From Candidatus Zhuqueibacterota bacterium (lineage in GTDB: Bacteria; Zhuqueibacterota; Zhuqueibacteria; Thermofontimicrobiales; Thiofontviventaceae): DNA of 64,000 nucleotides. Within the stretch, counting starts at the first letter, position 1. Every line of letters starts with the position of its first letter. The DNA is taken from positions 2,918 to 66,917 of the forward strand of contig JAFGDW010000160.1 of NCBI GenBank assembly GCA_016931935.1, read 5' to 3'. A program made the translations under genes and the position numbers. This document shows positions 1,095 through 49,741 of the stretch, piece by piece. Under the pieces are notes generated by a model. That model saw only the letters and a program-made list of their open reading frames with translations. It was not told the origin of the DNA and searched no databases.

Positions 1095-3080
1095 CTAAGT
1101 TACCGAGACGGTGATCATCGTCATGTCATCATGTTGTGGGGCATTGTTTGTAAATGCGCTGATAGCGTTTAATACTTCATGCTGGATTGCATCGGCAGCG
1201 CGCTGTTCTGAATTTGCGATCGTCCGGATCAACTCTTCTTCTCCGAATTCATCCATATGTTCGTTCATTGCCTCGGAAATTCCATCGGTATAAAAAACTA
1301 TGCAATCTTCCGATTTCAGTTTCACGGTCTGTTCCTCAATTGTCTTGTTAAAAAGAATTCCTTGCTCCAGTCCTAACCCAATGCCGGGGGGAATCAACAC
1401 ATCAATATCGCAATCCTGACAGCGTTTAATGAGCAATGCATTATGACCGGCTCTGGCAAGCACGAGTGTCCGTCGCTTCCAGTTCAGTACGGCATAAATC
1501 ATTGTGACGAATACTTTTTGATCCATCGAACCGTAGAGCCGACGGTTTAGCTCACACAGCAATTCTTTGGGAGAATTATAAATATGAGTCAATGACAACA
1601 TCATTCCTTTCACCATCGCCATGTAAAACGCTGCTGACGTGCCTTTGCCAGTGACATCTGCAATGACAATACCTAATGTGTGATCGGATAGTTGAAAATA
1701 ATCAAAATAATCCCCTCCGATTTCCGTTGCCGGAATACAAATCCCGGAAATATCCAGCGCACTGATGTGCGGGGAATCCTGAGGAAGCAAACGGTTCTGT
1801 ACAGCGCGTGCAATCTCCAGCTCACGTTTGAGTCGTTCCTGTTCGGTCAATTCTTCATATAATAAAGCACTCTCAATTGCGAATGCGCCCTGACCCAATA
1901 ACGTCGCTAAAAATGATTTTTCTTCATCAGAAAATGATGTATGCGATTCGTTTGTCGCCAATAAGAGAATGCCTGCGACCTCCTGTTTTATGAGAATAGG
2001 GCAGACGAGGGAATTATCATCGACATACGCCGATATGCGAACCTTTTGGGCAAAATCAGAATATTTACTCATGAGATACAACGGCAGCGGACGGGCAGTG
2101 GATTTTAAATAATAGCACAGCGTTTCATCACGATTACATGCAAATGTTTTTTCAAATGAGTGTGGGAACGCGCTGATAAGTTGGAATGATTCGGGATTGG
2201 ATGTTGTATGTCGAATAAACAAATAACCCTGCCGACTGGATAATCCATTCACAATCCGCTGCACCATCAAATCGCAGATTTTTTTTAATTCGATGGTAAA
2301 ACCCAATTCATGACTAAAGGTTTCGATTAACGACTTCTCTCGCAAACCGCGAGTCATATAATTAAACGTATCGGTCATTTCGCCAATTTCATCACGCGAT
2401 GTAATGGTGACCTGTTGGTCTAAATCTCCCTGTGAAATACGCATCATTGCATTGGTCAGACGATTTAGGGGTATCACAATCCGGTGACTTGTGTAATACG
2501 AAGCGATAATTGCTATGACTGTAAAGATAGCCGCCAATTCCAGATTCCAAATTAAATTTTGCCTGATCGCATCATTGAGTTCCACCAATGAAAATCCCAC
2601 CTTGACGGTTCCCAAATTTTGATCGCCAATCAATATGTTTACACTCTTGGCTTCAAGGTCTTGCTGACTTTCCGCAGCAATTTGCCGTTGATCGAGTTGC
2701 GTTACAATGTTTACCTGTTCGAATGAGTTAAGGGGGCGAGCATTATCAACGTCGATCCAGTCAAGATTTAACGAACTGGCTTGCAGTTTATTGTGGTCAT
2801 CGAAAATGGCAATGTAAACAATATCAGGATTCAGCCTGATTTGGTTGTCGATGTACGATTGATACATTTCCCAATCTTCTGTTTCGACCGACCGGATGGT
2901 GGCGATATTATTTGCCAGGCGTTCCATTCTTAAGCTGACCTGTTCTGCCCGCAGATTCATTTCCCGAATAGTGAAGATGTACGTCACCGCTGCCATCATT
3001 CCCAAAACCAGCATAAGGAAAAGGAATGTGATTTTTATTTTAAGACTGATGCGTAATTTGGGAAATAGTTTTTCAAACAT
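1095..3080 (-). CDS. Membrane HAMP-GAF-PP2C (SpoIIE/RsbU-type) serine phosphatase
   Basis: Two TM segments, HAMP (PLNRLTNAM..SRDEIGEM), GAF-like region, PP2C motifs IGGDYFDY, IADVTGKG, YTDGISEA, DDMT. Start taken at ATG 3080 (ORF track starts at 3146). Confidence 0.9.
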   Translation of the reverse strand: MFEKLFPKLRISLKIKITFLFLMLVLGMMAAVTYIFTIREMNLRAEQVSLRMERLANNIATIRSVETEDWEMYQSYIDNQIRLNPDIVYIAIFDDHNKLQASSLNLDWIDVDNARPLNSFEQVNIVTQLDQRQIAAESQQDLEAKSVNILIGDQNLGTVKVGFSLVELNDAIRQNLIWNLELAAIFTVIAIIASYYTSHRIVIPLNRLTNAMMRISQGDLDQQVTITSRDEIGEMTDTFNYMTRGLREKSLIETFSHELGFTIELKKICDLMVQRIVNGLSSRQGYLFIRHTTSNPESFQLISAFPHSFEKTFACNRDETLCYYLKSTARPLPLYLMSKYSDFAQKVRISAYVDDNSLVCPILIKQEVAGILLLATNESHTSFSDEEKSFLATLLGQGAFAIESALLYEELTEQERLKRELEIARAVQNRLLPQDSPHISALDISGICIPATEIGGDYFDYFQLSDHTLGIVIADVTGKGTSAAFYMAMVKGMMLSLTHIYNSPKELLCELNRRLYGSMDQKVFVTMIYAVLNWKRRTLVLARAGHNALLIKRCQDCDIDVLIPPGIGLGLEQGILFNKTIEEQTVKLKSEDCIVFYTDGISEAMNEHMDEFGEEELIRTIANSEQRAADAIQHEVLNAISAFTNNAPQHDDMTMITVSVT

Positions 3081-3308
3081 GGAGAAATTATTCGTTTGTA
3101 AAAGTTGTTTGGAAAATTTGTATGTCATTACATAAAACAAGCTCAAATATCGTTTAGCAGTAAAATCCTGGGTGTGTTTAAAAACGACGATTTGCTAACG
3201 GCCGTTTGTTCATTTGAAGCCAATGCTAATTGCCAACAGCCAATCGTACAATTTAGGTTGTAATGATTTTTAACGGTGAACTGTGAACAAGAAACCCGTA
3301 AACCATTC

Positions 3309-29975: not shown

Positions 29976-30494
29976 CTACAATGCAAGTAAATGTTTGTGA
30001 ATATATGACAACAAAGCATGCGTGACAAGCGCCACAAAAATGCCAGTGACGATTGCAGAGATGGAGAGAATGGGGAGCAAATAAAATATACCTGAATGAT
30101 GCATTAATAGTAATGCAACAAGTGCCAATTGAGTCACGTTATGACTGACAGCGCCAATAATTCCAATTCCGATAATGCTGAAGGTTTGAGGCAACAACTT
30201 AAGAAGGCTGAACATCATGAGTGTTGCGGATATACTTCCGCCAAACGACAGAAAAAATGTCGGATTAAACAAAGTGCCGGTAAACAGTGAGCCAAGACAA
30301 ACGCGGAGTATGGCGACTATTAGCGCCTCTGGAAGCCCGAAAAGATACAGTGCTGCAAGTGTAGACATGTTGGCAAGTCCGGGCTTTAGCCACGGCAGCG
30401 GGCGCGGAATGAGCATCTCAATCATGAAAATGATGAGACCTACTGCCACGAGCAATGCAATCCAGGTGAGTTTTCGATTTCGGGAAATTATCAT
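29976..30494 (-). CDS. Gx transporter family protein (often labelled heptaprenyl diphosphate synthase component I)
   Basis: IEMLIPRPLPWLKPGLAN, LSFGGS, SIIGAVSHNVTQL-type motifs; about five TM segments. Confidence 0.85.
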   Translation of the reverse strand: MIISRNRKLTWIALLVAVGLIIFMIEMLIPRPLPWLKPGLANMSTLAALYLFGLPEALIVAILRVCLGSLFTGTLFNPTFFLSFGGSISATLMMFSLLKLLPQTFSIIGIGIIGAVSHNVTQLALVALLLMHHSGIFYLLPILSISAIVTGIFVALVTHALLSYIHKHLLAL

Positions 30495-35842: not shown

Positions 35843-36436
35843 ATGGATGTCAAGTTAGACAGCCTCATTGAAAAGATTAAGAAAGAAGGCATTGAGGAAG
35901 CTCAAAGCTCAGCAGACGAGATCGTGAAAGAGGCCAGGAAGAAAGCAACGAAAATTGTAGAAGACGCCAAAAAAGAGGCTGAGAAAGTCGTTGACGATGG
36001 TAAGCGCAAGGTTGATCAATTTAAAGCGACTGCGGAAGCCGATTTACAACAGGCAGCTCGCAATGCAGAATTGTTGCTAAAAGAAAAATTTACAGCGTTG
36101 TTCGACGCTGTATTCAAACGCGAAGTCGGTGAAAAATTATCCGCTGATTTCATGAAAGATGTTATTTTAAAAATCGTCGACAGTTGGGCCAAAGACGCAA
36201 ATGCTGAAGTCGTGCTTAACGACAAAGACAAAAAAGCGCTGGAAACTGTGCTGTTTAAGGGCGTAAAAGAAGATGCCAAAAAAGGCGTTACGCTGAAGGT
36301 CAGCCCGGATGTTGCCAATGGTTTCCGGATTGGCGTAAAAGGCTCGGACGTTTATTACGACTTTTCCGACGACGCCATTGCGGCTGTGCTTAAATCATTA
36401 ATTAATCCGAACCTGAAAGCCATACTGGACAAATAA
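35843..36436 (+). CDS. V-type ATP synthase subunit E
   Basis: LDSLIEKIKKEGIEEA coiled coil; GFRIG..YYDFSDDAIA; first gene of operon; GGAGG RBS. Confidence 0.85.
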   Translation: MDVKLDSLIEKIKKEGIEEAQSSADEIVKEARKKATKIVEDAKKEAEKVVDDGKRKVDQFKATAEADLQQAARNAELLLKEKFTALFDAVFKREVGEKLSADFMKDVILKIVDSWAKDANAEVVLNDKDKKALETVLFKGVKEDAKKGVTLKVSPDVANGFRIGVKGSDVYYDFSDDAIAAVLKSLINPNLKAILDK

Positions 36437-36438
36437 GG

Positions 36439-36939
36439 ATGGATAAATATTATTATTTAATAGCACAACTGCCGACGCTGGCATTTGGGAAAGAGCCGGG
36501 GATTACAATCGAACGCTTTTTGGATGAAGCCGAAAAATGGATGGATGATGGCGATTACCGGATTCTCCAAACCGTTGACTCGTCCAACGTCGCTATTAGC
36601 AAACAAGATCCTGGCGATTTGAAATCTTACAAACAGTTCGAATTCGCATTACGCTCAGATATCGCCGCCTGGCGTGAGGCGCAGGCAAAAGACGTTGACT
36701 ATAAACCGGCAAGTTTTCCCGTTTCCATGATTAAAGAAGGCAATCCGCTTGATGTTGAGTTAAAATTCATGGACATGCGTTGGCAGTTATTAGACGAGAT
36801 AGAGCGGGAGCATCACTTTGATTTCACATATGTGATTATCTATTTTCTCAAATTGCAGCTCCTGCACAGATATTTTACATTTGATAAAGAACAAGGCTTG
36901 AACAAATTTCAAAAGCTATATCAAGAGGTAACAGCATGA
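36439..36939 (+). CDS. DUF2764 family protein (V-type ATPase subunit C-like)
   Basis: YYYLIAQLPTL..NPLDVE..HHFDF..YFLKLQLL; canonical position between E and A. Confidence 0.8.
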   Translation: MDKYYYLIAQLPTLAFGKEPGITIERFLDEAEKWMDDGDYRILQTVDSSNVAISKQDPGDLKSYKQFEFALRSDIAAWREAQAKDVDYKPASFPVSMIKEGNPLDVELKFMDMRWQLLDEIEREHHFDFTYVIIYFLKLQLLHRYFTFDKEQGLNKFQKLYQEVTA

Positions 36940-38678
36940 AACCCAATACTGGTAAAATTATTGGTGTTAGCGGCAATATGGTGACGGTGTCTGTCGATGG
37001 AAATATCATGCAGAATGAAGTGGCCTACATTATCAAAGGTGATCAACGATTGAAATCGGAAATCGTTCGGATCGGTGATGGTGTTGCTTTTATGCAGGTG
37101 TTCGAAAGCACAAAAGGCCTGAATATTGGTGATGATGTTGAATTCAGCGGCCAGTTGCTATCTGTCCAACTAGGACCCGGTTTGCTAACACATATCTACG
37201 ATGGCTTACAGAATCCATTGCCGGACTTGGCTGAAGCGCATGGCTTTTTTCTGCCCCGCGGTGTTGAGCTGAAACCATTGGATGAAACTGCAAAATGGAA
37301 ATTTACACCGAGTGTGAAAGCAGGCGATGTTGTCGTTGCCGGCCAGTCACTCGGTTTTGTCCCCGAAGGTATTTTTGAGCATCAAATTATGGTGCCGTTT
37401 GATCTTCGCGGCGAATTTACAGTGACTGAAGTGGCAAAAGCCGGAGACTATACAATTACCGATACTATCGCTCAGGTGAAGGATGAAAAAGGCAAAAGTC
37501 TTAATATATCGATGTCCTTCCGCTGGCCGGTAAAATTGGCAATTGAAGCATATAAAGAAAAAATTGTGCCGGTTGATCCGTTGGTTACCCAGGCACGAAT
37601 TATCGATACATTTTTCCCGGTAGCAAAAGGCGGAACCTTCTGTATTCCTGGACCGTTCGGCGCTGGTAAGACTGTACTTCAGCACATACTCAGCCGCTAT
37701 GCCCAGGTCGATATCGTTATTGTAGCAGCATGTGGCGAACGTGCAGGTGAAGTGGTGGAACTGCTGCGTGAGTTTCCCGAGCTCGAAGATCCACGCACTG
37801 GAAAAACTCTGATGGACCGAACGATCATTATCTGTAATACCAGCTCGATGCCGGTAGCCGCTCGTGAAGCGTCAGTGTACACCGCTGTTACGCTGGGCGA
37901 GTACTACCGCCAAATGGGACTGGATGTACTACTGATGGCCGATTCCACATCCCGATGGGCGCAGGCGATGCGTGAATTGTCCGGCCGTTTGGAAGAAATC
38001 CCTGGTGAGGAAGCGTTCCCGGCATATCTGGAATCGCGGATTGCCGAATTTTACGAACGCTCCGGTCTGGTTGAACTGCATGATGGCAAAGTTGGCAGTT
38101 TAACGATTGGTGGAACTGTTAGCCCGGCTGGCGGTAATTTTGAGGAACCGGTCACTCAGGCTACATTGAAAGTAGTTGGCGCTTTTCTTGGCCTTTCCCG
38201 TGACCGCGCCAATGCACGCCGTTTCCCGTCGATTCATCCATTGGAAAGTTGGTCAAAATACCCAACCTTTGTTGATGATAATGAAGTAGCAGCGGCCCGT
38301 GACATGCTGCAACGTGGCAGCGATGTCGGTCAGATGATGATGGTGGTTGGCGAAGAAGGGACGTCGCATGAAGATTTTCAGCTTTATCTTAAAGGTGAAT
38401 TCCTTGATAGCGTGTTTCTCCAGCAGAATGCATTTGATAAAGTGGATGCCGGCTCGAGCAAAGATCGGCAACAATATGTGTTCGCCATGGTGAATCGCGT
38501 GTTAAAAACAAATTTTCAATTGGATGACAAAGAAAAAGCGCGTGGCTTTTTTAACCAACTACGTCAACTTTTCATCGATTGGAATTACATCGCTATGGAT
38601 GATGCCGAATTCAAGGCGCAGGAAAATTCGATTGACAAACTAATCAAGGAGAACTCCGGAAATGAGGAAAGTTTATAA
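36936..38678 (+). CDS. V-type ATP synthase subunit A
   Basis: [43 protein letters not shown]. Confidence 0.96.
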
Positions 38679-39969
38679 TAAAATTCTCAGCATTAGCGGC
38701 AACGTGATCACCGTTAAAGCCTCGGATGTTGGCTATGAAGAGCTGGCGGAAATTACCACCCATCGCGGCAAATCGTTGGCGCAGGTAATTAAGCTGGATG
38801 GTGATCTGGTGTCATTGCAGGTGTTTGCCGGGAGTCGTGGTGTTTCCGTTAGCGATGAAGTTCGATTCCTTGGTCATCCGATGCAAGTTACCTATTCGGA
38901 CAACATGCTCGGCCGTATTTTTGATGGCGCCGGTAATCCCCGCGATAAGGGACCGCAGTTGGCCGATGAAATGATTGAAGTAGCCGGACCCAGTGTGAAC
39001 CCGGCAAAACGTATTATTCCGAAACGTATGATTCGTACCAATATCCCGATGATTGATATTTTCAATTCACTCGTTGTCTCCCAGAAATTGCCGATTTTTT
39101 CGATTTCCGGTGAGCCGTACAACGAACTGCTGGCGCGCATCGCGTTGCAGGCAGAAGTTGATATGATCATTCTCGGCGGTATCGGCTTGAAATATGATGA
39201 ATACATGAAGTTTAAAAGTGTGTTGGAAGAAGGTGGTGCGTTGTCACGCTCAATCTTTTTCATGAACACCGCGTCTGACCCAATCGTGGAAAGTCTAATG
39301 GTGCCCGATTTGAGTCTGGCAGTCGCTGAGAAGTTTGCACTGAAAGGTAAAGACGTGCTTGTTCTGCTGACCGACATGACCAATTTCGCAGACGCCATGA
39401 AAGAAATTGCGATCACAATGGAACAGGTGCCGTCCAACCGTGGTTATCCCGGTGACTTGTACAGCCAGTTAGCTGCCCGTTATGAAAAGGCTGTTGACTT
39501 TGAAGGAGCCGGTTCAATAACCGTTCTCGCAGTTACCACCATGCCTGGCGATGATGTTACCCATCCGGTTCCTGATAATACTGGCTATATCACCGAAGGT
39601 CAGTTCTACCTGCATCACGGTTACATCGATCCATTCGGCTCACTAAGTCGGTTGAAGCAGCAGGTGAATGGTTCGGACAGCAGCCGCAAGGACCACCGGG
39701 CAATTATGGATGGGATGATCCAGTTGTACGCGCAATACATTGAAACCGAGGAAAAGCGCTCAATGGGATTCAGAATGAGTAGTTGGGATCAGAAGCTGTT
39801 GAAATACGGCCAGCATTTCAAATCCCAAATGATGAATTTAACCGTCAATATTCCGCTCGAAGAAGCGCTCGACCGTGGCTGGCAAATTTTGGCAGATTGT
39901 TTTACATCAGAAGAAACGCGTATGCGTACCGAATTGATTAACGAATTCTGGCCGACAAACGGAAAATAA
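38662..39969 (+). CDS. V-type ATP synthase subunit B
   Basis: [47 protein letters not shown]. Confidence 0.96.
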
Positions 39970-39988
39970 ATATTAAAGGATTGCTCAC

Positions 39989-40603
39989 ATGGCAAAAATC
40001 AAATACACTAAAAATGAGCTGAAACGCCAGAAAGACAATCTCAAGCGATTTACCCGTTATTTGCCAACGCTGGAATTGAAGAAACAACAATTGCTCGTGG
40101 AAATCCGTACCATCCAGACCGCGGTTGACCGATTGGAAATAGAAACTCAACAATTGGAGCAGGATGTGCGCCAATGGGCGGATGTGTTTGCGGAAGACAT
40201 CGATTTGAACACGATGTTTAAAGTGACTGAAATTCTAACCGATGAAGGCAATATTGCCGGAATTGATATTCCATTGTTTAAAGATGTGTTGTTTGAGGAT
40301 TTCGATTACGACTATTTTCAAACGCCGCTATGGGTGGACAAAGCGCTGGATGTCACCAAGACGCAAATCAAGCGCAAATTGGAATTGCAGGTACTGCATA
40401 AACAACAGGAAATCATTCGGGAAGAACTTCGCGTTACAATCCAGCGCATTAAGCTGTTTGAAGAAGTGAAAATTCCGGAAGCCAAAGAAAATATCCGTGT
40501 CATCCAGATATTTCTAGGGGACCAGATGACTGCGGCGGTAGTTCGCGGGAAAATTGCCAAAGGCAAAATCGAAAAGAAGAAAAAAGAGGAGACCCCCGCA
40601 TGA
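39989..40603 (+). CDS. V-type ATP synthase subunit D
   Basis: TKNELKRQK..RYLPTLELKKQQL; QRIKLFEEVKIPEAKENIR. Confidence 0.93.
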   Translation: MAKIKYTKNELKRQKDNLKRFTRYLPTLELKKQQLLVEIRTIQTAVDRLEIETQQLEQDVRQWADVFAEDIDLNTMFKVTEILTDEGNIAGIDIPLFKDVLFEDFDYDYFQTPLWVDKALDVTKTQIKRKLELQVLHKQQEIIREELRVTIQRIKLFEEVKIPEAKENIRVIQIFLGDQMTAAVVRGKIAKGKIEKKKKEETPA

Positions 40604-42363
40604 TTGTAGCGATGAAGAAGGTCACGCTGCTGCTTGCTAAAAAGCACCGTGACAGCGGATTGAAGCGATTGCGGCAACTGGGTGTCCTGCATGTACATGA
40701 TCTCCAGCCACCTGCGGCGGAAGATATTCAAAGCCTGGAAATGAAGATGGAAAATATTGACCGGGCGCTCACAATTATTGACAATGACAATCTGCCTACG
40801 CAAACCGCTTCTGATGATGCAGCGGCTGTAGCCGAGCAGATGCTGGCATTTACCCAGCAAAAGGACGCGTTAACGCGTGAGTTGGGCGAATATCAAACTA
40901 TGCAACAGTGGTTCGAGCGATGGAGTGATGTCTCAAACGCTTCAGTTCAACAATTAAAAGAAAATGGCATTTTTGTTCGTCTTTACGTAACGGATAAAGG
41001 TGCCCAAAAAAATATTCCCGGCGATAAAATGATCCATGTCGCCAATGAAATTCAGAATACAGTTTATTTGGCGCTGATTTCCGAGGCAGAAGACGATCGA
41101 CTGGATTTCAAGGAAGAAACGATTCCGCAAATAGAGCCGAGTGAAGTTCATAGCAAAATCAATGAACTCACCCAAACGATTGAAGGAATCAATGCAAAAG
41201 TTACTGAAATGGCCGAATATCAGCAAGCGCTTATCGATTTAAAGTCAACACTTGCAAAGCAACTGGAACTGAGCCGCGTAAAGTATGGCATGGGTGATTT
41301 TGGCGAAATTGCCGGCCTGCAAGGCTTTTGCCCGGTTGAGCAATTGAGCTACGTTCAGAAGGCTGCTGAGCAGGAAGGATGGGGCTACATTGTTGAGGAA
41401 CCTGATAATCCTGCGGATGTACCGACGCTGATTAAAACGCCAAAATGGCTACGAATGATTCAGCCGGTGTTCAGTTTTATGGGAACATTACCCGGATATG
41501 AGGAAATGGATGTAAGCCTGGTATTTCTCACATTTTTCAGTCTGTTTTTTGCTATGCTGGTTGGTGATGGCGGTTACGGGCTGGTCTTCCTGATCCTGAC
41601 AATCTTGATAGGTCGGAAAAGCAAGAGTGATTTTGTAAAACTACTCTATGTGTTAAGCCTGTCAACGATCGTTTGGGGACTTGTTACCGGAAACTGGTTC
41701 GGATCCAAAACGATTATTCAATTGCCATTTCTGAAAATGTTCGTCATTCCAAAAATGGACGCGTTCTCGGATGTGTCAACCCCATTTGTCATGCAACTTT
41801 CACTGACAGTCGGCATCATTCAATTGAGTGTAGCGCATTTAATGGCTGCAGGCAAAAAGAGTAACTCAATGACTGCCCTGGCCGACATCGGATGGGTGAT
41901 AACGCTATGGGGTGTCTTTTTTGTAGCAAATCAACTTGTTTTGGGCAAAGAACCACCATTCTTTATGAAGTATATGTTGATCGGTGGAATGACAACAATT
42001 CTGCTATTCGCCAATTTCCAGAAAAATATATTAAAAGGCGTATTGCAAACACTAGGTAATTTGCCACTGGATGTGATCAGCTCCTTTTCGGATATTGTTT
42101 CGTACATCCGTCTGTTTGCTGTAGGATTTGCATCGTTTATCGTTGCCTCCAGCTTTAACACCATGGCTGTTGGGTCCGGCATTGATAGCGTCGTTAGCGG
42201 TATCATCGCGGCGATTATCTTATTTCTGGGACACTCGCTGAACATTGCTTTGTGCGGAATGGCAGTGCTGGTACACGGCGTTCGTTTGAATATGCTCGAA
42301 TTTTCCGGTCATGTTGGTGTACAATGGACCGGAAAGCCGTATGAGCCATTTAAAGAGAAATAA
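40600..42363 (+). CDS. V-type ATP synthase subunit I (a)
   Basis: MIVAMKKV; FFAMLVGDGGYG; SDIVSYIRLFAVG (essential Arg); HGVRLNMLEF. Confidence 0.93.
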   Translation: MIVAMKKVTLLLAKKHRDSGLKRLRQLGVLHVHDLQPPAAEDIQSLEMKMENIDRALTIIDNDNLPTQTASDDAAAVAEQMLAFTQQKDALTRELGEYQTMQQWFERWSDVSNASVQQLKENGIFVRLYVTDKGAQKNIPGDKMIHVANEIQNTVYLALISEAEDDRLDFKEETIPQIEPSEVHSKINELTQTIEGINAKVTEMAEYQQALIDLKSTLAKQLELSRVKYGMGDFGEIAGLQGFCPVEQLSYVQKAAEQEGWGYIVEEPDNPADVPTLIKTPKWLRMIQPVFSFMGTLPGYEEMDVSLVFLTFFSLFFAMLVGDGGYGLVFLILTILIGRKSKSDFVKLLYVLSLSTIVWGLVTGNWFGSKTIIQLPFLKMFVIPKMDAFSDVSTPFVMQLSLTVGIIQLSVAHLMAAGKKSNSMTALADIGWVITLWGVFFVANQLVLGKEPPFFMKYMLIGGMTTILLFANFQKNILKGVLQTLGNLPLDVISSFSDIVSYIRLFAVGFASFIVASSFNTMAVGSGIDSVVSGIIAAIILFLGHSLNIALCGMAVLVHGVRLNMLEFSGHVGVQWTGKPYEPFKEK

Positions 42364-42514
42364 TCGTTCCGCCCTGATATATCGGGATGGAATGATGTAT
42401 TATAAATTTAAAATATGTAATTTTAATATTTCATTTTTCATATTTCATATTGATAAATGATGCCAAAAACTTTACTGATTGTTATACCAGATCTTATTTG
42501 AAAGGAGATTTATC

Positions 42515-42955
42515 ATGGTCGAAGGATTAGGTGATATGAGTCTGTCACTGGCGATTGCTGCCATTGGTTCAGCTTTGGGTACGGGCGTTGCTGGTATGGC
42601 CTCTGTGGGGGCCTGGAAGCGTGCGTTTATGGCGAACAAAGCCGCTCCATTTTTGCTGGTCGTATTTGTTGGTGCCCCATTATCACAGACAATTTATGGT
42701 ATGATTTTACGAAATGCAATTCAAGGCGCCAATTTAGACCCGAAAAGTTACGTTTACCAGATGATACTTGGCGGAATGGCCGGATTAGCAATGGGGTTGT
42801 CCGCTTATATGCAAGGCAAAGCTGGTGCCAAAGCCGCTGATGCTCTGGCTGAAACCGGAAAAGGATTTGGTAATTATATTATGGTCGTTGGTGTTATCGA
42901 AACCGTAGCACTGTTTGTGATGGTGTTTACAATGACTGCATTGCCAACTGCATAA
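42515..42955 (+). CDS. V-type ATP synthase subunit K (c, four-TM)
   Basis: GSALGTGVAG, GAPLSQTIYG, GVIETVALF; ATG 42515 after AAGGAG. Confidence 0.92.
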   Translation: MVEGLGDMSLSLAIAAIGSALGTGVAGMASVGAWKRAFMANKAAPFLLVVFVGAPLSQTIYGMILRNAIQGANLDPKSYVYQMILGGMAGLAMGLSAYMQGKAGAKAADALAETGKGFGNYIMVVGVIETVALFVMVFTMTALPTA

Positions 42956-43069: not shown

Positions 43070-43240
43070 TTAACGAATAATTGTAGTTGTCATTGATAAA
43101 TCATTAGGAGTCATCTGCTTGTCCGTAGTATTGAGTAACGACCGTTGGCACCACATTGTCATTGCAAATGTCACGATAAGCATGACGATTATGACTTTTA
43201 AAATGAGACCAAAAAAAGTGTAAACAATTTTAGTAATCAC
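43070..43240 (-). CDS. Small single-TM hypothetical protein
   Basis: GTG at 43240 after AGGAGG, overlapping the upstream stop; hydrophobic FFGLILKVIIVMLIVTFAM. Confidence 0.45.
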   Translation of the reverse strand: MITKIVYTFFGLILKVIIVMLIVTFAMTMWCQRSLLNTTDKQMTPNDLSMTTTIIR

Positions 43241-43745
43241 CTGGCCTCCTATCTGCATATTTTAAATTTGGGGGCTGCTTTTTTTTGCCCTTAAATCCCC
43301 ATGCAAGCCCTATGATTGAAAAAAAACATGGAACACATCGAAACCGCTCCAGCAGAATTTTGAAAAAATCGAAAATCCGTTGCAAATTTTCTGAAGTAAA
43401 TAATGCGGCTGCAATTGTGCCTTTAAAGATCAAAACATCACATACAAATACTAAAATAATTACTATGATAATGACATGTTTTGTAATCCCTAAAAATCGA
43501 CCTATTAAAAAGCCGATAAATGTTGGAAGCAATATCAAAAGAAAGAATTTTCTCAAGAATTCAATATCATTTCTTGGAAGGATCTGTTGTGGCGTTTGAT
43601 CTTGAAAGGGTTGTTTATAAAAAATAAATAATGGAATTGTGGCAGTACATTGAAATACAATCACAGATGGAGCGCAATTAGACTGAGTTGGTGGATGAAT
43701 GGATGGTTGCACAAGAGCAACTATCAGCGAAATATATAAAAGCAT
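43230..43745 (-). CDS. Hypothetical multi-TM membrane protein (C-terminal part FUN14-like)
   Basis: ATG 43745 after GGAGG; TFIGFLIGRFLG..IIIVIILVFV..IGLAWGFK pattern recalls FUN14 family (unverified). Confidence 0.55.
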   Translation of the reverse strand: MLLYISLIVALVQPSIHPPTQSNCAPSVIVFQCTATIPLFIFYKQPFQDQTPQQILPRNDIEFLRKFFLLILLPTFIGFLIGRFLGITKHVIIIVIILVFVCDVLIFKGTIAAALFTSENLQRIFDFFKILLERFRCVPCFFSIIGLAWGFKGKKKQPPNLKYADRRPGDY

Positions 43746-43880
43746 GTTTACCTCCAAGAGTCTGTTGAATCATATTTGCCGAAGAATGTGCACGATTGCA
43801 GACCATCATGGAGCGCATGCGTGATGCTAAGAACAAAAAGCCGTAATTTTTGGCTTATTTGGCTCTCCAATTACAATATG

Positions 43881-44135: not shown

Positions 44136-45668
44136 TTAATTCAGGTTGGGGGATATTGAAACTTTGGCATTAAGCCAGTAGCCTTTTCCGCGACCTTGTA
44201 CCTGGGGAATTAGATCGGTTGCTTCGATTTTGTCCAGCTTGCGTCTGATTGAATAGATCCATGATCGGATATCGTCGCTTTGAAAATTGGGGAAGCGTTG
44301 TTTAATTTTGTTTAAAAATATGTCCCATTCAGGCTGCTGAATTTCGTTGTTTTGAAGCGATGATGACAAGCAGTTTGTTTGGTCAGGAAATTCAAGTTCA
44401 TTGTTCATGCCCAATGATACATTTTTAACGCTTTTATAAGCCATGTACAACAATGCCATTTTTTCCTTCCAATCCATAAGTAAGGCGGGCAATCGTTGCT
44501 GATTATTAAATATATCAATTTCAATGCTGCCAGCATCCAGGAATGATTTCAGGAATAATTGTTCCGCTGATGTTGAACCAATGGTATCACCCGGTGATGT
44601 ATGGTAAATATGAATATGATAGCGAGACGCGTTTTCATGTTCATAAGTTGGGGGTTCTTTTTCGAGCAAAGTTTGTGAAAGATAGTCCTGATAAAGTTTG
44701 CTACGGAATGTGCAGTGACCATTGCTTTCACAAATAGGACCCGCACCGGTAATGGAAAATGTATCATAAGGCAGAAAGTTGATACGTTCACCATGAAGCA
44801 TTCTTAAGATAATCTTCTTCAATTCAGGCTGATCTTTCAACTCGGCAGCTAGTGTATCGATATTGGTACTGTTCTGATAGAGCTTGTAAATTGAATATTC
44901 GACATCTTGGTCTGTTAATTGTTTTTGTGTTTGCATGCCTGCATCGTACAAAATTGAACACAACTGTTGTAATAATTGGGGATGGCCGCTTGTTTTAAAA
45001 TAAATCAATTCCAAAATCCCGGTATCGGCGAAGGGCGTTAAATGGTGCATAATAGCTTGTGCTTGCGCAAAAGTAAAATTTGTTAATTGCAGCTTTTGGG
45101 CAATATTAAAAGGAGATGTTGGACCAAGTGTAAGTTCCACAAGATTGGCAGAACAAGCGACGATCACGCTAAATTTATTTAGCACGGGTTCCATCAGTCG
45201 TTCATTAAAAATATTTCGCCAAATAGTGAGAAATGACTGTGCCAAAGGTGCATGTTCTATTTCGTCTATAAAGAAAATCAATTTGGAAGGAAGATCAGCC
45301 GCTAACGTTTTCAGGTAGTTAACAAAATCAATTTCAGGGCCAAAGTGAGTCGAAGTAATTGTATCGCTATCGATTTTGATCCCGGTAAGTAGATCGCGAA
45401 GCTTGTTGTTGACCAGACTAAAGAACTTAACAGGATCATCGGGCATATTACTCATATAAAGATAAATGTTTGGGATATCCCCCAATTCCATATGTAATTG
45501 TTGGATAAAAGTCGTTTTCCCAATTTGACGTGGGCCAAGAATTGCCCAGTAATCGCCACGAAAAATACCGGTTATTACCTCATCAAGCTGTTCGCGCCGT
45601 TTAACCAAAACAGATGAATTAATAACAGGATTTAATGGCCCGAGAAATTTATATGGATTTTCGGGCAT
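44136..45668 (-). CDS. AAA_35/STAND-like NTPase with C-terminal OmpR-like winged HTH (putative transcription regulator)
   Basis: NPY..GP, Walker A GPRQIGKTT, Walker B IFFIDEIE, SPFNIA, TSGHPQLLQQLC; C-terminal DDIRSWIYSIRRKL..IPQVQGRGKGYWL. ATG 45668 after GAGGAG overlaps the upstream stop. Confidence 0.78.
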   Translation of the reverse strand: MPENPYKFLGPLNPVINSSVLVKRREQLDEVITGIFRGDYWAILGPRQIGKTTFIQQLHMELGDIPNIYLYMSNMPDDPVKFFSLVNNKLRDLLTGIKIDSDTITSTHFGPEIDFVNYLKTLAADLPSKLIFFIDEIEHAPLAQSFLTIWRNIFNERLMEPVLNKFSVIVACSANLVELTLGPTSPFNIAQKLQLTNFTFAQAQAIMHHLTPFADTGILELIYFKTSGHPQLLQQLCSILYDAGMQTQKQLTDQDVEYSIYKLYQNSTNIDTLAAELKDQPELKKIILRMLHGERINFLPYDTFSITGAGPICESNGHCTFRSKLYQDYLSQTLLEKEPPTYEHENASRYHIHIYHTSPGDTIGSTSAEQLFLKSFLDAGSIEIDIFNNQQRLPALLMDWKEKMALLYMAYKSVKNVSLGMNNELEFPDQTNCLSSSLQNNEIQQPEWDIFLNKIKQRFPNFQSDDIRSWIYSIRRKLDKIEATDLIPQVQGRGKGYWLNAKVSISPNLN

Positions 45669-48453
45669 CTTCAATAGTCTCCTCGACAAAGTTTTCGATA
45701 TTATTCCGACGTTTTAAGATTTCCGGAAATACCGGAAGTGCGAATTGATATTTCCCACCTTGTTGTGGTATGAAAATATATCGTAGCATTAGATTACTTA
45801 AATGGGTGTTAAGCATAACGCTTGAAAGTTTAACATTGTGATTGGATAGCGTTGTTTTGAGATGATTTAAAGTAAATGTGCCGCCTTCTAAATGATGCTG
45901 GAGTGCAAAAACAACGATCAGGCGTTCAATTGGATGAATGTCATTAGTGAAGAACAGGTAAAAGTCATTAACCACATAATTTTCGTACTTAAAGGATTCA
46001 AAAAAATCATCAATATCTGTCTGGGCAATTATTCGCTTGGTTCCGTTTAATCGATTATTTTCAATTCTCTCAATTAAATTTTTACTAACATACTGAAGCA
46101 AATTGGGGTGGCAGGATGTTTTTTCCAAAATAGTGGCATGGCACAGGGGACTTTCATAATGGATGCCCAGGTTTTCCATCGGCTGAGTAATTAGCGAAAG
46201 CGCATCTTCCTCCTTCAGTTTTTCAAGTTCTATTACTTCACAAAAATTATATAAGGGCGAACGAATACTCCTACTGCTCTTAAATAACTCCTCAAAGCCG
46301 GAGAAGATTACCTGACACAACTCTTCCTGATACATTGATCGAAATGTTTCAATTAAATTGTAATTATTCGCACTATCGTACATCAATAATTTATCGATTT
46401 CATCAATTAGCAAAACCGGTATTTTTTGTACACGCTTACGTAGCTCAACAATTATTGAGCGAAGGTCATTATCTTCATCCGTACCATCCATACACCAAAA
46501 GTGGTATTGTTTTAACTTACTCAACAGTGTATGAATAAAGGTATCATAATTCTGCTCGGCGGGCGATTCGATATCCAAATAAATTGGCAGCGAATTTGAT
46601 GGCATATTATCTTTGATCTTCAACAGCAGCGATGTTTTGCCAAGCTTACGTGCGCCGACAATTGCAAAATTGCGGGACTTCGACCGCAATATCCTGCCAA
46701 TTTCATCCTGACGGCCATAGAAAGTTGCTTTTACTGGTCCGTCTGTTTTATACGGTGAAATGATAGACGGTTTTACCTGTTTAAGTAATATTTCCTGTTT
46801 AAAGTACTGGATCGGTCGGGAAGAAACCGCAATGTTTTTAATATCGTTTTCTTCCAGCAGCACAATGCCTAGATACTTTTTATCGACAAGCCGGGAAATC
46901 TGGGATGACTTCCGCAAGCAGATCATCATTGATGGATTTGCCGGCTTGTCTTGTTTGAGAATCGCATCCTGAAAATAGTTGATATCAAGTTCGGATATAT
47001 CCATCCTTTTAGGAACAAATAACAGCACATTTTCCAAGCCATCAAGATCAAGGCTGCCCATATTTATCGTATAATAACTTTTTTTATCATCAGGTTCGTT
47101 TGTGATGATAAAATCGAGAATGTTACAAACAATTTTGACCAGACAATCGAGATCGTCCTGGTCAATCACTCCGTTATGCAATTTTTCCTGAAGTCCGCTC
47201 CAGCATTGTGCCAGACGTATAATTTGCTTAATATTATCAATTGGCCGGGGAATGACATTCCAGGGAATGATGTTGAGGATATTTTCTATTTGATGAAGCG
47301 GAACAGAGAAAGCAATCTTATCAAGATTTTCAGCGACAGTGCGTAACAGAGACCGACTGGCGGTGACCCACATTCCATATAATGGCACCTTGAACGGATT
47401 GCGTAGGAATAGCCTGTGATCGATTTTGTTGATATACCCATTTTCATATAATTGGACAAAAATCGAATTTAATTCTTCATCTGTAAATATTGCGTCAAGC
47501 AGCTTATGACCATTAAAAATATAATAATTTCCGAATTTTTGAGTTATCGCTTTATCCGATAGCGCGACGGCAACTATCCGGCTGCGATAATCAAGCCGTT
47601 GCCAGAAATGAAGAAAATCATCGCGTTTTCCTCTGATTAAATTATTCGCAACATGGAAAACATCTTCAGTATGACATTCAACTCGATTCACTCGCGAAAG
47701 ATAATGACTAATCGATTCAATCAGCAACTGCTGACAATATAGATTGCCGCCAGTTATTTTGAAAATTTCCTGCTGCGCGGTCGCATCGCATTCAATACAA
47801 TGTTTTTCAAGCTCACGTTGCATGCTTTCAAACGATGGTGTTTCCAAAAACATATTTAAATCAATTCGAGATGCCGAATTAACAAGTTCACTCATAACTG
47901 ATTTATTCATCATCATGTACACATTTTGGTTTCCAGCCAGAATTAAGCGAAACTTATCTTGTTTCGTTAATAGGTAGTGAAAAAACTGAAAAATATGTTC
48001 GAGTGTTTCGTTATCAATTACATCATGCAGGAAGTGGATTTCATCATACATAAGCAGTAAAATTACATTTTCATCAGTTTTTTCTGCTATATCGTCCATA
48101 AAAAGTGTGAGTTCATCTTCTGCAATACTTAATCGCAGTGACAAATCCGATGTAAGCAAATTAATTCCCGAATTGAGCAGTGCCGTTCGGAGAGCCCGAT
48201 ATGTATTAAGGAAAAAAGCACCAGGTTCGATTTCCCTGGTATCGATATAAGCCGAGATGTAGTTTGGTCCGGGAATATCATGGTCATCTATAATTCGTGT
48301 AAGCGTACTTGTTTTGCCGGCGCCCATTACGCCTTGAATAATAATGAGTTTTGTGATTGGCGCTACTTCGAACTCATGTTTTATTTTTTCAACAATTTCC
48401 TGGGAATAAATGTAATCGCGATTCGAATGTATGGACGACGAAGGTAACGTCAT
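45649..48453 (-). CDS. Protein with two tandem STAND-like (AAA_16/ATPase_2-type) NTPase modules
   Basis: Module 1: GVMGAGKTS, LLMYDEIH, TGGNLYCQQL. Module 2: SPY..GP..FYGRQDEI, GARKLGKTSLL, LLIDEID, TSCHPNLLQ. ATG 48453 after GAGGAG (alternative 48510). Confidence 0.8.
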   Translation of the reverse strand: MTLPSSSIHSNRDYIYSQEIVEKIKHEFEVAPITKLIIIQGVMGAGKTSTLTRIIDDHDIPGPNYISAYIDTREIEPGAFFLNTYRALRTALLNSGINLLTSDLSLRLSIAEDELTLFMDDIAEKTDENVILLLMYDEIHFLHDVIDNETLEHIFQFFHYLLTKQDKFRLILAGNQNVYMMMNKSVMSELVNSASRIDLNMFLETPSFESMQRELEKHCIECDATAQQEIFKITGGNLYCQQLLIESISHYLSRVNRVECHTEDVFHVANNLIRGKRDDFLHFWQRLDYRSRIVAVALSDKAITQKFGNYYIFNGHKLLDAIFTDEELNSIFVQLYENGYINKIDHRLFLRNPFKVPLYGMWVTASRSLLRTVAENLDKIAFSVPLHQIENILNIIPWNVIPRPIDNIKQIIRLAQCWSGLQEKLHNGVIDQDDLDCLVKIVCNILDFIITNEPDDKKSYYTINMGSLDLDGLENVLLFVPKRMDISELDINYFQDAILKQDKPANPSMMICLRKSSQISRLVDKKYLGIVLLEENDIKNIAVSSRPIQYFKQEILLKQVKPSIISPYKTDGPVKATFYGRQDEIGRILRSKSRNFAIVGARKLGKTSLLLKIKDNMPSNSLPIYLDIESPAEQNYDTFIHTLLSKLKQYHFWCMDGTDEDNDLRSIIVELRKRVQKIPVLLIDEIDKLLMYDSANNYNLIETFRSMYQEELCQVIFSGFEELFKSSRSIRSPLYNFCEVIELEKLKEEDALSLITQPMENLGIHYESPLCHATILEKTSCHPNLLQYVSKNLIERIENNRLNGTKRIIAQTDIDDFFESFKYENYVVNDFYLFFTNDIHPIERLIVVFALQHHLEGGTFTLNHLKTTLSNHNVKLSSVMLNTHLSNLMLRYIFIPQQGGKYQFALPVFPEILKRRNNIENFVEETIEDARKSI

Positions 48454-48542
48454 GGTTTGCTCCTCTTCAAGAAATGAAGATGAATTTGGTGTTAAATTAC
48501 CATAATTCATATGCTCTATACCTTGTCTTAAAATCGATAAAA

Positions 48543-49460
48543 TTACTGCAGCTGCAGCCCAAAGGATTTTGGAACTTGTTTGAACCCAGTTACAGATGAT
48601 TGGTTTGATTGAAAATACCGCTTGAGTGAAATTCTTTTTTCCTCCGTGATGCACTCAAACGAAGTCTCTGTTTTGTTATTGGCATAACAATACAGATCAT
48701 ATAAAATCGATCGGTAGGTTTTTCGGGTAAGTGCATAAATACTGGGCGCGGTGAGATAGTAAGGTTGTGTTTTATTATCACAGATGAGCGGGGGAAGTGC
48801 ACCAAGTCCCGAAGTATGATTTGAAGAAATAAAAAAATCGGCAGTTGCGATAGGCACGCCATAATAAAATTCAATAAGCTCCGATATAGATGGATGATGT
48901 CCCTTAAGATGATAAAAATTTGCAATTCGTGATATCAGATGTTCCCACGAAGAATCTATTCCAAATAATAGTGTATGTTTTACGTGATGGCGGGTCGATG
49001 ACTCTATATTATATATGAGATTTTTCAAATTGTCTTCGTGTAACCTGGACAAGCTGTCGATATTGCCATAAAATAGGACGCGCACCTCGTAAGCTTCTAA
49101 AAATCTTAGCCATAATGGTGAACTGAGAAGTAATTCCAGGCCGCGTTGCAATACCTGCTTTCGATATTGTTCGTCTCGTTTCAGGATTTTGGAGCTAATA
49201 AGGGGGACAAGGCAGGTATGCAGATTGTGATTAAATAATATATGAAGGTTAAAACGAAGTAGTGTGGATATTATTTGGACAAGTCGGTTGTAATAACCAA
49301 TGGATTTCAGGTTAAGATCAGACATTGCCAAAGCCAGACGACGGGTTCCGTTTGGGACAAATACGCCAATTTGGGGAAGCAAGGCCGAAGGAACATAGTG
49401 AAGTAAATCCTGTGTCGATAATGTCTGAAATTGATGACTGGTTAAAATTTTGGCCATCAC
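48543..49460 (-). CDS. Rv3378c-like (tuberculosinyl transferase / diterpene synthase, cis-prenyltransferase fold) protein
   Basis: Colinear match to recalled Rv3378c motifs: VFVPNGTRR (VFPFDGTRR), KRDEQY (DRGDRY), EVRVLFYG (EVHVLFYG), YYG..ADFFIS (YYG..ADMFIG), YYLTAPS..RSILYD (YFTVAPS..RRILYD); similar length. Confidence 0.8.
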   Translation of the reverse strand: MMAKILTSHQFQTLSTQDLLHYVPSALLPQIGVFVPNGTRRLALAMSDLNLKSIGYYNRLVQIISTLLRFNLHILFNHNLHTCLVPLISSKILKRDEQYRKQVLQRGLELLLSSPLWLRFLEAYEVRVLFYGNIDSLSRLHEDNLKNLIYNIESSTRHHVKHTLLFGIDSSWEHLISRIANFYHLKGHHPSISELIEFYYGVPIATADFFISSNHTSGLGALPPLICDNKTQPYYLTAPSIYALTRKTYRSILYDLYCYANNKTETSFECITEEKRISLKRYFQSNQSSVTGFKQVPKSFGLQLQ

Positions 49461-49513
49461 ATACCGAATTTAAAAGGTTAGTATTTTAAATTTCGTTATA
49501 TTTCAATATATGT

Positions 49514-49564
49514 AATATAATTTATAAAGGTAAAAAAGCAAGTTTAAAAACGGTTTTTAACGGT
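49514..49564 (-). promoter_or_regulatory. Promoter with tandem direct-repeat operator, copy 2
   Basis: Minus strand: ACCGTT-aaaa-ACCGTT-N7-TTGCTT-N16-TATATT; same geometry as 43881-43926. Confidence 0.65.
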
Positions 49565-49638
49565 AAAATTTAAAAATTTATAGCATGGCCGGAAATATGA
49601 CAATTGTGAAAATATTCTTTTAAGGGTCGAGAAAAAAC

Positions 49639-49667
49639 TTGACTTTTTTGTTTAATTCCGTTAAATT
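49639..49667 (+). promoter_or_regulatory. Putative sigma70 promoter of accBC
   Basis: TTGACT-N17-TAAATT. Confidence 0.5.
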
Positions 49668-49741
49668 GGTAAACTCTATTCAAAGCGACGCGTAGTGTGA
49701 AGGGATGGAGGAAAAATTAGAAGAAATCTGTGGAGCTGATT

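Follow-up and report, generated by a model that had tools for sequence, protein, structure and literature searches.

What does a homolog of a mycobacterial terpenoid enzyme do when its gene lies beside P-loop NTPases and not beside a terpene cyclase? The question is raised by the gene at positions 48543 to 49460 of a 64,000-nucleotide stretch of contig JAFGDW010000160.1 from a Candidatus Zhuqueibacterota bacterium, a stretch referred to here as the window. A preliminary description had read this gene as an orphan homolog of Rv3378c, the tuberculosinyl adenosine transferase/tuberculosinol synthase of Mycobacterium tuberculosis, with NGTRR in place of the DGTRR loop, and had suggested that it may be a partner of the neighboring NTPases. 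We find that the product belongs to the Rv3378c family in both sequence and fold, and that its gene always comes first in a module of two to three genes that is scattered horizontally, in which it is joined by a tandem P-loop NTPase and usually by an NTPase of the AAA_35 family.

Family membership and the loop asparagine

A phmmer search of Protein Data Bank (PDB) chains returned the Rv3378c entries 3wqk, 3wql, and 4cmv as the sole significant matches (E 1.3e-20), with residues 29 to 286 of the query aligned to residues 26 to 277 of the Rv3378c chain, so the homology is full length. The predicted structure leads to the same family. An AlphaFold2 model of the protein, built on a 41-row family alignment, has a pLDDT of 89 and a pTM of 0.86 and falls below a pLDDT of 50 only at residues 293 to 305, and Foldseek places Rv3378c chains at the top of its PDB matches (E 3.6e-19 to 5e-17, TM 0.74–0.81, 24–26% identity). 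The undecaprenyl, decaprenyl, and dodecaprenyl diphosphate synthases come next (E about 1e-9, TM by target 0.76–0.82). With these cis-prenyltransferases the window protein shares the fold and the Asp/Asn-Gly-x-Arg-Arg diphosphate loop, but it is only 11–17% identical to them and does not reach the gathering score of their family, PF01255 (UPPS), so that the likeness is structural only; the genome has its own bona fide UPPS gene, the lone match to that family, on contig C66. No model in Pfam (E ≤ 1), NCBIfam, or PADLOC matches the window protein, and a word-based protein search with the single sequence returned its own entry only.

We take Asp34, Tyr51, and Tyr90 of Rv3378c to be residues with catalytic roles. 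In the phmmer alignment, N37-G-T-R40-R41 of the window protein lies over D34-G-T-R37-R38 of Rv3378c, Tyr56 (in IGYY) over Tyr51, and Tyr99 (in DEQY) over Tyr90. The counterpart of Tyr51 differs by alignment: it is Tyr56 in the pairwise comparison and Tyr57 in the conserved column of the gene's own clade, where Tyr is found in 14 of 15 members; position 56 is Phe in 14 of these 15. The Arg-Arg pair and the equivalents of both tyrosines (R40, R41, Y56 or Y57, and Y99) are all present, and Asn37 stands in the place of Asp34, just as had been noticed from the letters of the sequence.

To place this asparagine within the family, we used an exhaustive HMMER scan of 1.84 billion protein representatives, which gave 161 relatives at E ≤ 1e-3; of these, 97 remain at E ≤ 1e-10 and 22 at E ≤ 1e-30, and the best match is 37% identical to the window protein. 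An xGxRR motif near the N terminus is recognizable in 100 of the 150 matches listed (161 in total), and among the matches listed its first residue is Asn in 49, Asp in 44, Glu in four, and another residue in three. A quick maximum-likelihood tree (LG+G4, midpoint root, SH-aLRT as the only support measure) was computed from 110 full-length rows, with fragments shorter than 270 aa and the fusion protein P0148 excluded and other fusions trimmed to their homologous part; it splits the family in two, group A with 40 rows (support 95) and group B with 70. The window protein belongs to group A, and the closest representative of Rv3378c, P0060, to group B; the match to Rv3378c has an E value of 4.6e-63 for P0060 and 5e-32 for P0004 of group A, against the 1.3e-20 of the window protein. 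By joint alignment, position 37 is Asn in 47 of the 70 group B members (Asp in 12, other residues in 11), whereas 34 of 35 group A representatives have Asp and one has Asn. The 15 loci of the gene's own clade have Asp in 12 cases, Glu in two, and Asn in one, the window itself.

In the half of the family to which P0060 and the cyclase fusions described below belong, most members have Asn, and the Asp of Rv3378c is in the minority. Because of this majority, Asn alone is not a sign of lost catalysis or of a changed substrate, and Asp is not a defining residue of the Rv3378c family as a whole; asparagine at this position appears compatible with a working enzyme. The substitution therefore does not bear the weight that the preliminary description placed on it. 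As an oddity of the family it falls away, and as an oddity of the gene's own clade, within which it is a private change, it stands.

Two members of group B, P0035 (803 aa) and P0062 (828 aa), have the same NGTRR loop as the window protein, and their C-terminal halves match SQHop_cyclase_C/PF13243 (E 1.1e-13 and 2.3e-11, respectively). Because the SQHop_cyclase-type domain is covalently joined, the substrate in these two proteins would be a cyclized prenyl diphosphate. The window protein differs from them in its group and in its architecture: a search of longer proteins with a profile of its clade found no fused forms, cyclase fusions included, although this is weak evidence. Two further architectures occur in the family. 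P0043, of group A, is a fusion of a HAD phosphatase with an Rv3378c-like domain, and in P0148 a complete UPPS (PF01255, E 1.4e-66) is fused to such a domain; together they hint that some members may act on cis-prenyl diphosphates or on phosphorylated products.

A recurrent module with P-loop NTPases

We found 17 distinct loci (L048, identical in DNA to L036, was counted once), of which 15 are informative and two, L044 and L047, are too short. A tandem NTPase gene lies downstream of the enzyme gene on the same strand in 13 of the 15 informative loci, namely the window, G125, G119, G135, L036, L037, L038, L039, L043, L045, L046, L049, and L051. Within the phylum, the enzyme occurs in five of 167 genomes, all of one order. 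In G125 and G119, the enzyme gene is followed by a tandem NTPase ortholog (960 and 959 aa, 43% and 41% identical to that of the window) and then by an AAA_35 gene, and in G135 an N-terminal fragment of the NTPase lies directly downstream and runs into the contig end. G133 (L013 9763-18510, G133:C40) has a different series after the enzyme gene, encoding a GNAT protein, an AAA_16/NB-ARC-TPR STAND protein, a 705-aa TIR protein, a radical SAM/SPASM protein, and a second GNAT protein, and this neighborhood may be a distinct system around the same enzyme. A reverse search of the 167 genomes recovered full-length tandem NTPase orthologs only in G000, G125, and G119, together with the G135 fragment. 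In the phylum, the full-length protein is confined to genomes that also carry the enzyme, and the other 32 genomes with NTPase matches have the C-terminal module only (the tally of 36 matching genomes among the 167 includes the unpublished G158 and G162).

The association recurs at loci from other lineages. A pattern scan of one genome per species yielded, besides the G125 contig, four further loci in metagenome-assembled genomes labeled Aminicenantes (two), Omnitrophota, and Acidobacteria, and a metagenome scan yielded nine loci, the duplicate L048 included. The tandem NTPase lies directly downstream of the enzyme in L036, L037, L038, and L039 (34–36% identity) and next to it in L043, L045, L049, and L051, the L049 copy being the N-terminal part at a contig end. 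In L046, it follows two intervening genes, one encoding an AAA_35-TIR protein and the other an ATP synthase alpha/beta subunit. In a sample of 401 genomes from the phylum of G168, one carries the enzyme, the center genome itself. Between loci the tandem NTPases are 29–48% identical, and the genomic surroundings differ. Pairwise identities of the enzyme and of the NTPase over 10 loci are correlated (r 0.62, a value reached in none of 5000 permutations); because the loci are kin, this correlation shows co-inheritance as a unit and nothing stronger. The two neighboring NTPase genes are real by Pfam, and the tie to them that the preliminary description had suggested is supported by the recurrent adjacency in several phyla.

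Of the 11 loci whose sequence continues beyond the NTPase, eight (the window, G125, G119, L037, L043, L045, L046, and L051) have an AAA_35 gene that completes the module, and L036, L038, and L039 lack one. The C terminus of its product is exchanged between loci, with a TIR domain in L046, a Ser/Thr kinase in L037, a hydrophobic tail in G125, and a common domain without a family in the window, G119, and L043. TPR-Pkinase genes lie beside L045 and L038. The GC content of the cassette is 0.383, against 0.429 in the rest of the window.

The frame of the window's tandem NTPase is open for 1001 aa, and its orthologs have ≈950–1000 aa; because they align only from residue ≈53–75, the start is probably ATG 48510 or ATG 48453. 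The N-terminal module is NACHT/AAA_16-like, with a Walker A motif near residue 100, and the C-terminal module has AAA_22, ATPase_2, and nSTAND1 matches in Pfam at residues 650–870. In an alignment of 11 orthologs, both Walker A motifs (G58-x-G60-K61 and S63; G614...G619-K620 and S622) and both Walker B motifs (D151; D698-E699 and D701) are invariant. The AlphaFold2 model (pLDDT 82, pTM 0.54) shows two ATPase-plus-winged-helix units with a helical and small alpha/beta region (≈370–580) between them. Its best local Foldseek matches are the archaeal ATPase_2 proteins SSO1545 (2fna) and PAB2304 (2qen) and ORC/Cdc6, and the tandem layout also brings matches to two-ring AAA+ proteins such as ClpB; a sequence search of the PDB gave no match at E ≤ 0.1. 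Complex prediction for the enzyme with residues 1–600 of the NTPase scored 0.16 and 0.00 (mark 0.32), which is not evidence either way.

The AAA_35 protein has full-length BLAST matches in L012 (34%) and L043 (39%) and, among PDB sequences, one weak match to a 114-residue hypothetical protein (E 0.06). Its C-terminal domain ends in a motif resembling those of OmpR-type winged helices (IRSWI.SIR.KL ... GRGKGY) and has a subthreshold Trans_reg_C match (E 0.18). A profile of three sequences searched against the PDB returned noise (beta-2-microglobulin, E about 0.1), and we rejected the winged-helix assignment.

Both NTPases show hallmarks of STAND/ATPase_2 switches, and yet the module fits no described defense system. 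It resembles the STAND/NLR and ATPase_2 conflict systems (Avs, bNACHT, and the NTP-dependent systems of Kaur et al. 2020) in its P-loop switches with intact Walker motifs, in the exchange of TIR and kinase outputs, and in its sporadic occurrence across phyla. It differs from them in that its constant partner is a predicted prenyl-diphosphate enzyme, in that the central protein combines two NTPase modules and lacks a repeat sensor, and in its location outside defense islands, with a PADLOC match that goes no further than the P-loop. The terms 'prenyl', 'terpen', and 'AAA_35' are absent, by term search, from the main texts of Kaur et al. 2020 (PMC7159879) and of a 2026 preprint surveying STAND families. 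Full-text literature searches on Rv3378c and STAND proteins, on cis-prenyltransferases and phage defense, and on genome mining for Rv3378c-like enzymes or terpene nucleosides returned nothing about this association, and one on AAA_35 (PF14516) brought up only papers on other subjects.

Two side observations concern the arrangement of these genes. At L050, a 598-aa frame on the minus strand (1304-3100), opposite to the enzyme, has neither a Pfam family nor a Walker A motif. In G125 (L011 9643-13473, G125:C82), the enzyme and tandem NTPase genes share one frame with a single TAG between them, so that the frame, this TAG included, is open over 1285 aa; read-through of this codon would give a fusion protein, and the arrangement may be a coincidence, since two genes share a frame by chance in one case out of three.

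Activity, substrate, and role of the enzyme

Eleven residues are invariant in all 15 clade loci: R40, P86, R95, Y131, G132, T156, Y200, G201, Y234, R250, and D255. All but P86 are active-site columns, ten in number, that are strongly conserved in both halves of the family, and position 37 is acidic in 14 of the 15 loci. Judged from sequence, these columns are those of a diphosphate-binding active site that has been conserved. The Tyr90 equivalent is more variable, being Phe in 10 of the 35 group A representatives and Tyr in 64 of the 70 members of group B. Group A enzymes would thus be expected to bind an allylic diphosphate as Rv3378c does, whereas the step after ionization need not match. 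The window protein is folded and probably competent for catalysis, and it belongs to a distinct, uncharacterized clade within group A.

As to the substrate, the genome assembly (7.9 Mb in 381 contigs, 92% complete, with the window on contig C294) gave no six-frame match to the class II cyclase families PF13243 and PF13249, and control genomes responded. Its lone polyprenyl_synt match lies on contig C218 and not on the contig of the window, in line with the earlier statement that the window has neither a class II cyclase nor a geranylgeranyl diphosphate (GGPP) synthase. Eight other genomes that carry a clade member were searched with PF13243, and six of them gave no match; the remaining two, G119 and G168, gave only weak, partial matches, in frames of ≈350 aa that lie elsewhere in the genome. 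A Pfam scan of the cassette itself found no class II cyclase and no terpenoid tailoring genes. The term 'orphan', as applied to the cyclase, is supported within the limits of draft genomes. The window protein therefore resembles Rv3378c in homology, fold, GTRR loop, Tyr51 and Tyr90 equivalents, and Arg, Asp, and Tyr columns, and differs from it in being ≈25% identical, in its Asn, in lying on the other major branch, and in having P-loop NTPases for partners and no Rv3377c-type class II cyclase adjacent or in the genome. Since that cyclase was looked for and not found in the 92%-complete assembly, the protein is not taken to be part of an Rv3377c/Rv3378c-type pathway.

The reading that we prefer, at about an even chance, is that the gene encodes an active prenyl-diphosphate enzyme that uses a noncyclized substrate and is functionally coupled to an NTPase switch in a mobile signaling or conflict module. 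In such an enzyme, the set of R40-R41, R95, and R250, with Mg2+ at position 37 (Asn here, Asp or Glu in relatives), would bind an allylic prenyl diphosphate, most likely a noncyclized one because the genome lacks a class II cyclase match. The enzyme would ionize the diphosphate and pass the prenyl group to water or to another nucleophile. A nucleoside or nucleotide acceptor would have its precedent in 1-tuberculosinyl-adenosine: Rv3378c condenses tuberculosinyl diphosphate with adenosine and also gives tuberculosinols (PMC7321100, PMC7180734), and this is the sole biochemical precedent for the acceptor. The chemistry would be coupled to the NTPase switch in one of two ways, with the enzyme either making a ligand that the NTPases read or serving as the output that they gate.

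A conflict system is favored, among the possible roles, by the swapping of TIR and kinase domains, by an occurrence that is sporadic across phyla, and by the low GC content. A more specific and tentative version, possible but well short of likely, places isoprenoid chemistry at the core of an undescribed NTPase-gated conflict or signaling system. On activation, the enzyme would prenylate a nucleoside or nucleotide, giving a lipid-nucleotide signal or poisoning the adenylate pool, or would destroy polyprenyl-diphosphate carriers; this activity would be read or gated by the tandem NTPase and by AAA_35 proteins whose TIR or kinase ends can be swapped.

Several observations weigh against the preferred reading. 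Some concern catalysis. Position 41 is Arg in 14 clade loci and Lys in one (G119), and the Tyr90 equivalent is Tyr in nine and Phe in six of the 15, for which reasons a mechanism of the Rv3378c type may not apply. The window copy is the most divergent of its clade, with 26–34% identity to the nine others compared (32–64% among themselves) and an end branch of 1.13 in the tree against a median of 0.62. The near-invariant C-terminal Gly and Trp of the family are absent at its positions 294 and 301, and the region around them is the one modeled at a pLDDT below 50. Others concern the coupling and the role. Two informative loci, G133 and L050, have no tandem NTPase, and the Pfam scan of the tandem NTPase found no recognized repeat sensor or effector domain. 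The flanks are housekeeping genes and not defense islands (V-ATPase and accBC in the window; mraZ/mraW, PolX, PNPase, pilin, and ManC elsewhere), PADLOC matches are at the level of the P-loop only (mad8, E 5.8e-6 over 60 residues), and a search of viral contigs found no homolog of the enzyme.

The points on catalysis bear on the possibility of a noncatalytic sensor or decoy, which would bind a prenyl diphosphate or related lipid, or mimic the cell's own cis-prenyltransferase, and report to the NTPases in the manner of an NLR integrated decoy, with no turnover. The drift at catalytic-equivalent positions in the clade (Phe at position 99, Asp, Glu, or Asn at position 37, and the Lys of G119) is what such a protein might show, as are the Asn37, long branch, and degenerate C-terminal motif of the window copy. 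Titles of PDB entries record crystals of the Y51F and Y51F/Y90F variants of Rv3378c in complex with the substrate TPP, and of wild-type Rv3378c with Mg2+ and pyrophosphate, which would fit a crippling of turnover by loss of the tyrosines. We nevertheless regard a sensor without turnover as unlikely, since the ten active-site columns, the Arg set and D255 among them, are invariant in every clade locus, position 37 is acidic in all of these but one, and Asn there is the norm in the cyclase-fused relatives.

The points on surroundings bear on a second alternative, a regulated function in envelope or isoprenoid-lipid metabolism. Here the enzyme would modify or recycle a polyprenyl carrier or make a prenylated surface metabolite, and the NTPases would be signal-transduction ATPases like MalT or AfsR, with kinase or DNA-binding outputs. 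Such a regulatory or envelope role is favored by the housekeeping flanks, which are partly syntenic within the order (V-ATPase in the window and G125; accB-accC-gcvH-gcvP in the window and G135), by the PADLOC and viral-contig results, and by envelope-type third genes (LPG_synthase_TM in L036 and PGA_cap in L038) with ManC and pilin genes upstream; the outputs include kinases, and the subthreshold winged-helix match in the window's AAA_35 protein would point the same way. Set against these are the TIR outputs at two loci (L046 and G133), the very sporadic distribution across phyla, and a cassette GC content below that of the surroundings, and the winged-helix lead was not firmed by the PDB profile search. 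We judge an envelope function to be no more probable than the decoy.

Least probable among the functional alternatives, and in our view quite improbable, is an ordinary terpenoid or prenyl-nucleoside synthase that uses farnesyl diphosphate, GGPP, or a cyclized diphosphate made elsewhere, with NTPase neighbors that have no functional link to it: the family does hold genuine terpenoid enzymes (Rv3378c, the cyclase fusions P0035 and P0062, the UPPS fusion P0148, and the HAD fusion P0043), and a cyclase could be missing from an assembly that is 92% complete, but the same neighbor recurs in 13 of 15 informative loci at 29–48% identity and in differing surroundings, neither PF13243 nor PF13249 was found in the genome nor PF13243 in six of eight other carriers, and the cassette is devoid of terpenoid tailoring genes. 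A pseudogene is ruled out by the intact frame and the presence of all ten clade-invariant active-site columns.

The locus and its place in the family

Table 1. Positions in the window of the enzyme gene, its NTPase partners, and nearby features.
Feature	Positions	Strand	Basis and remarks
Rv3378c-family (cis-prenyltransferase-fold) protein	48543..49460	-	305 aa (GTG 49460) or 304 aa (ATG 49457); opens the module
Codons N37-G-T-R-R41, diphosphate/Mg2+ loop over Rv3378c D34-G-T-R-R38	49338..49352	-	PDB alignment and codon reading
Codons Y56-Y57	49290..49295	-	Y56 over Tyr51 by HMMER; Y57 in the conserved Tyr column of the clade
Codon Y99, over Rv3378c Tyr90	49164..49166	-	PDB alignment
AT-rich divergent intergenic region, module to accB; presumed promoter region	49461..49729	.	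Sequence; 269 bp
Tandem P-loop NTPase ('dSTAND')	45649..48510 (frame open to 48654)	-	Pfam, alignment of 11 orthologs, AlphaFold2
AAA_35 NTPase	44136..45689	-	517 aa; Pfam AAA_35, E 9.3e-19
C-terminal domain of the AAA_35 protein	44139-44672	-	≈175 aa, no family; conserved in G119 and L043
Open reading frame between the V-ATPase operon and the module	43230-43757	-	175 aa, GC 0.343; no family
Hpre_diP_synt_I gene (heptaprenyl diphosphate synthase component I)	29976-30494	-	E 7.2e-43; 18 kb off

The enzyme frame begins GTG-ATG in the sequence, and the entries in protein collections and in the Atlas have the shorter of the two forms in Table 1; with the GTG directly followed by an ATG that gives this form, the ATG is the likely start. 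A promoter consensus scan of the intergenic region found 29 promoter-like sites against 25.4 expected from shuffles, and because the promoter and terminator scan does not exceed the shuffles, we assign no promoter. A V-type ATPase operon lies on one side of the module and accB-accC-gcvH-gcvP on the other, with PorV/T9SS genes further on, a gene content that would assign the organism to the FCB group. We leave the open reading frame at 43230-43757 out of the module because it has neither a family nor a counterpart in the other cassettes. The Hpre_diP_synt_I gene adjoins a gene for a NusG_II-domain protein and has no evident link to the module.

ATP synthase genes lie beside or inside the module at four loci (window 35843-42955, L011 15319-19028, L013 7533-9431, and L046 4860-6323). 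A V-type operon adjoins the modules of the window and G125, F-type beta and epsilon genes are directly upstream in G133, and an alpha/beta subunit gene lies inside the L046 module. This proximity could reflect chance, shared synteny, or an insertion hotspot.

To our knowledge, Rv3378c has so far been regarded as an almost unique enzyme whose role is to form terpene nucleosides together with a diterpene cyclase. The family comprises at least 161 representatives at 50% identity in two deep branches. The module is rare: the window's clade accounts for ≈61 strong clusters among 5.8 billion proteins at 90% identity, all unnamed or annotated as 'hypothetical protein'. One branch of the Rv3378c family holds a clade of ≈60 clusters tied to a tandem P-loop NTPase and to TIR or kinase NTPases and not to terpene cyclases. 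A likely annotation trap is also corrected: much of the family normally carries Asn in the DGTRR loop, and this residue should not be taken to denote inactivation. If the link to the NTPases is functional, prenyl transfer would join the known chemistries of NTPase-based signaling or immunity, and the module would offer an entry point, outside pathogens, to what the Rv3378c fold does with acceptors other than water.

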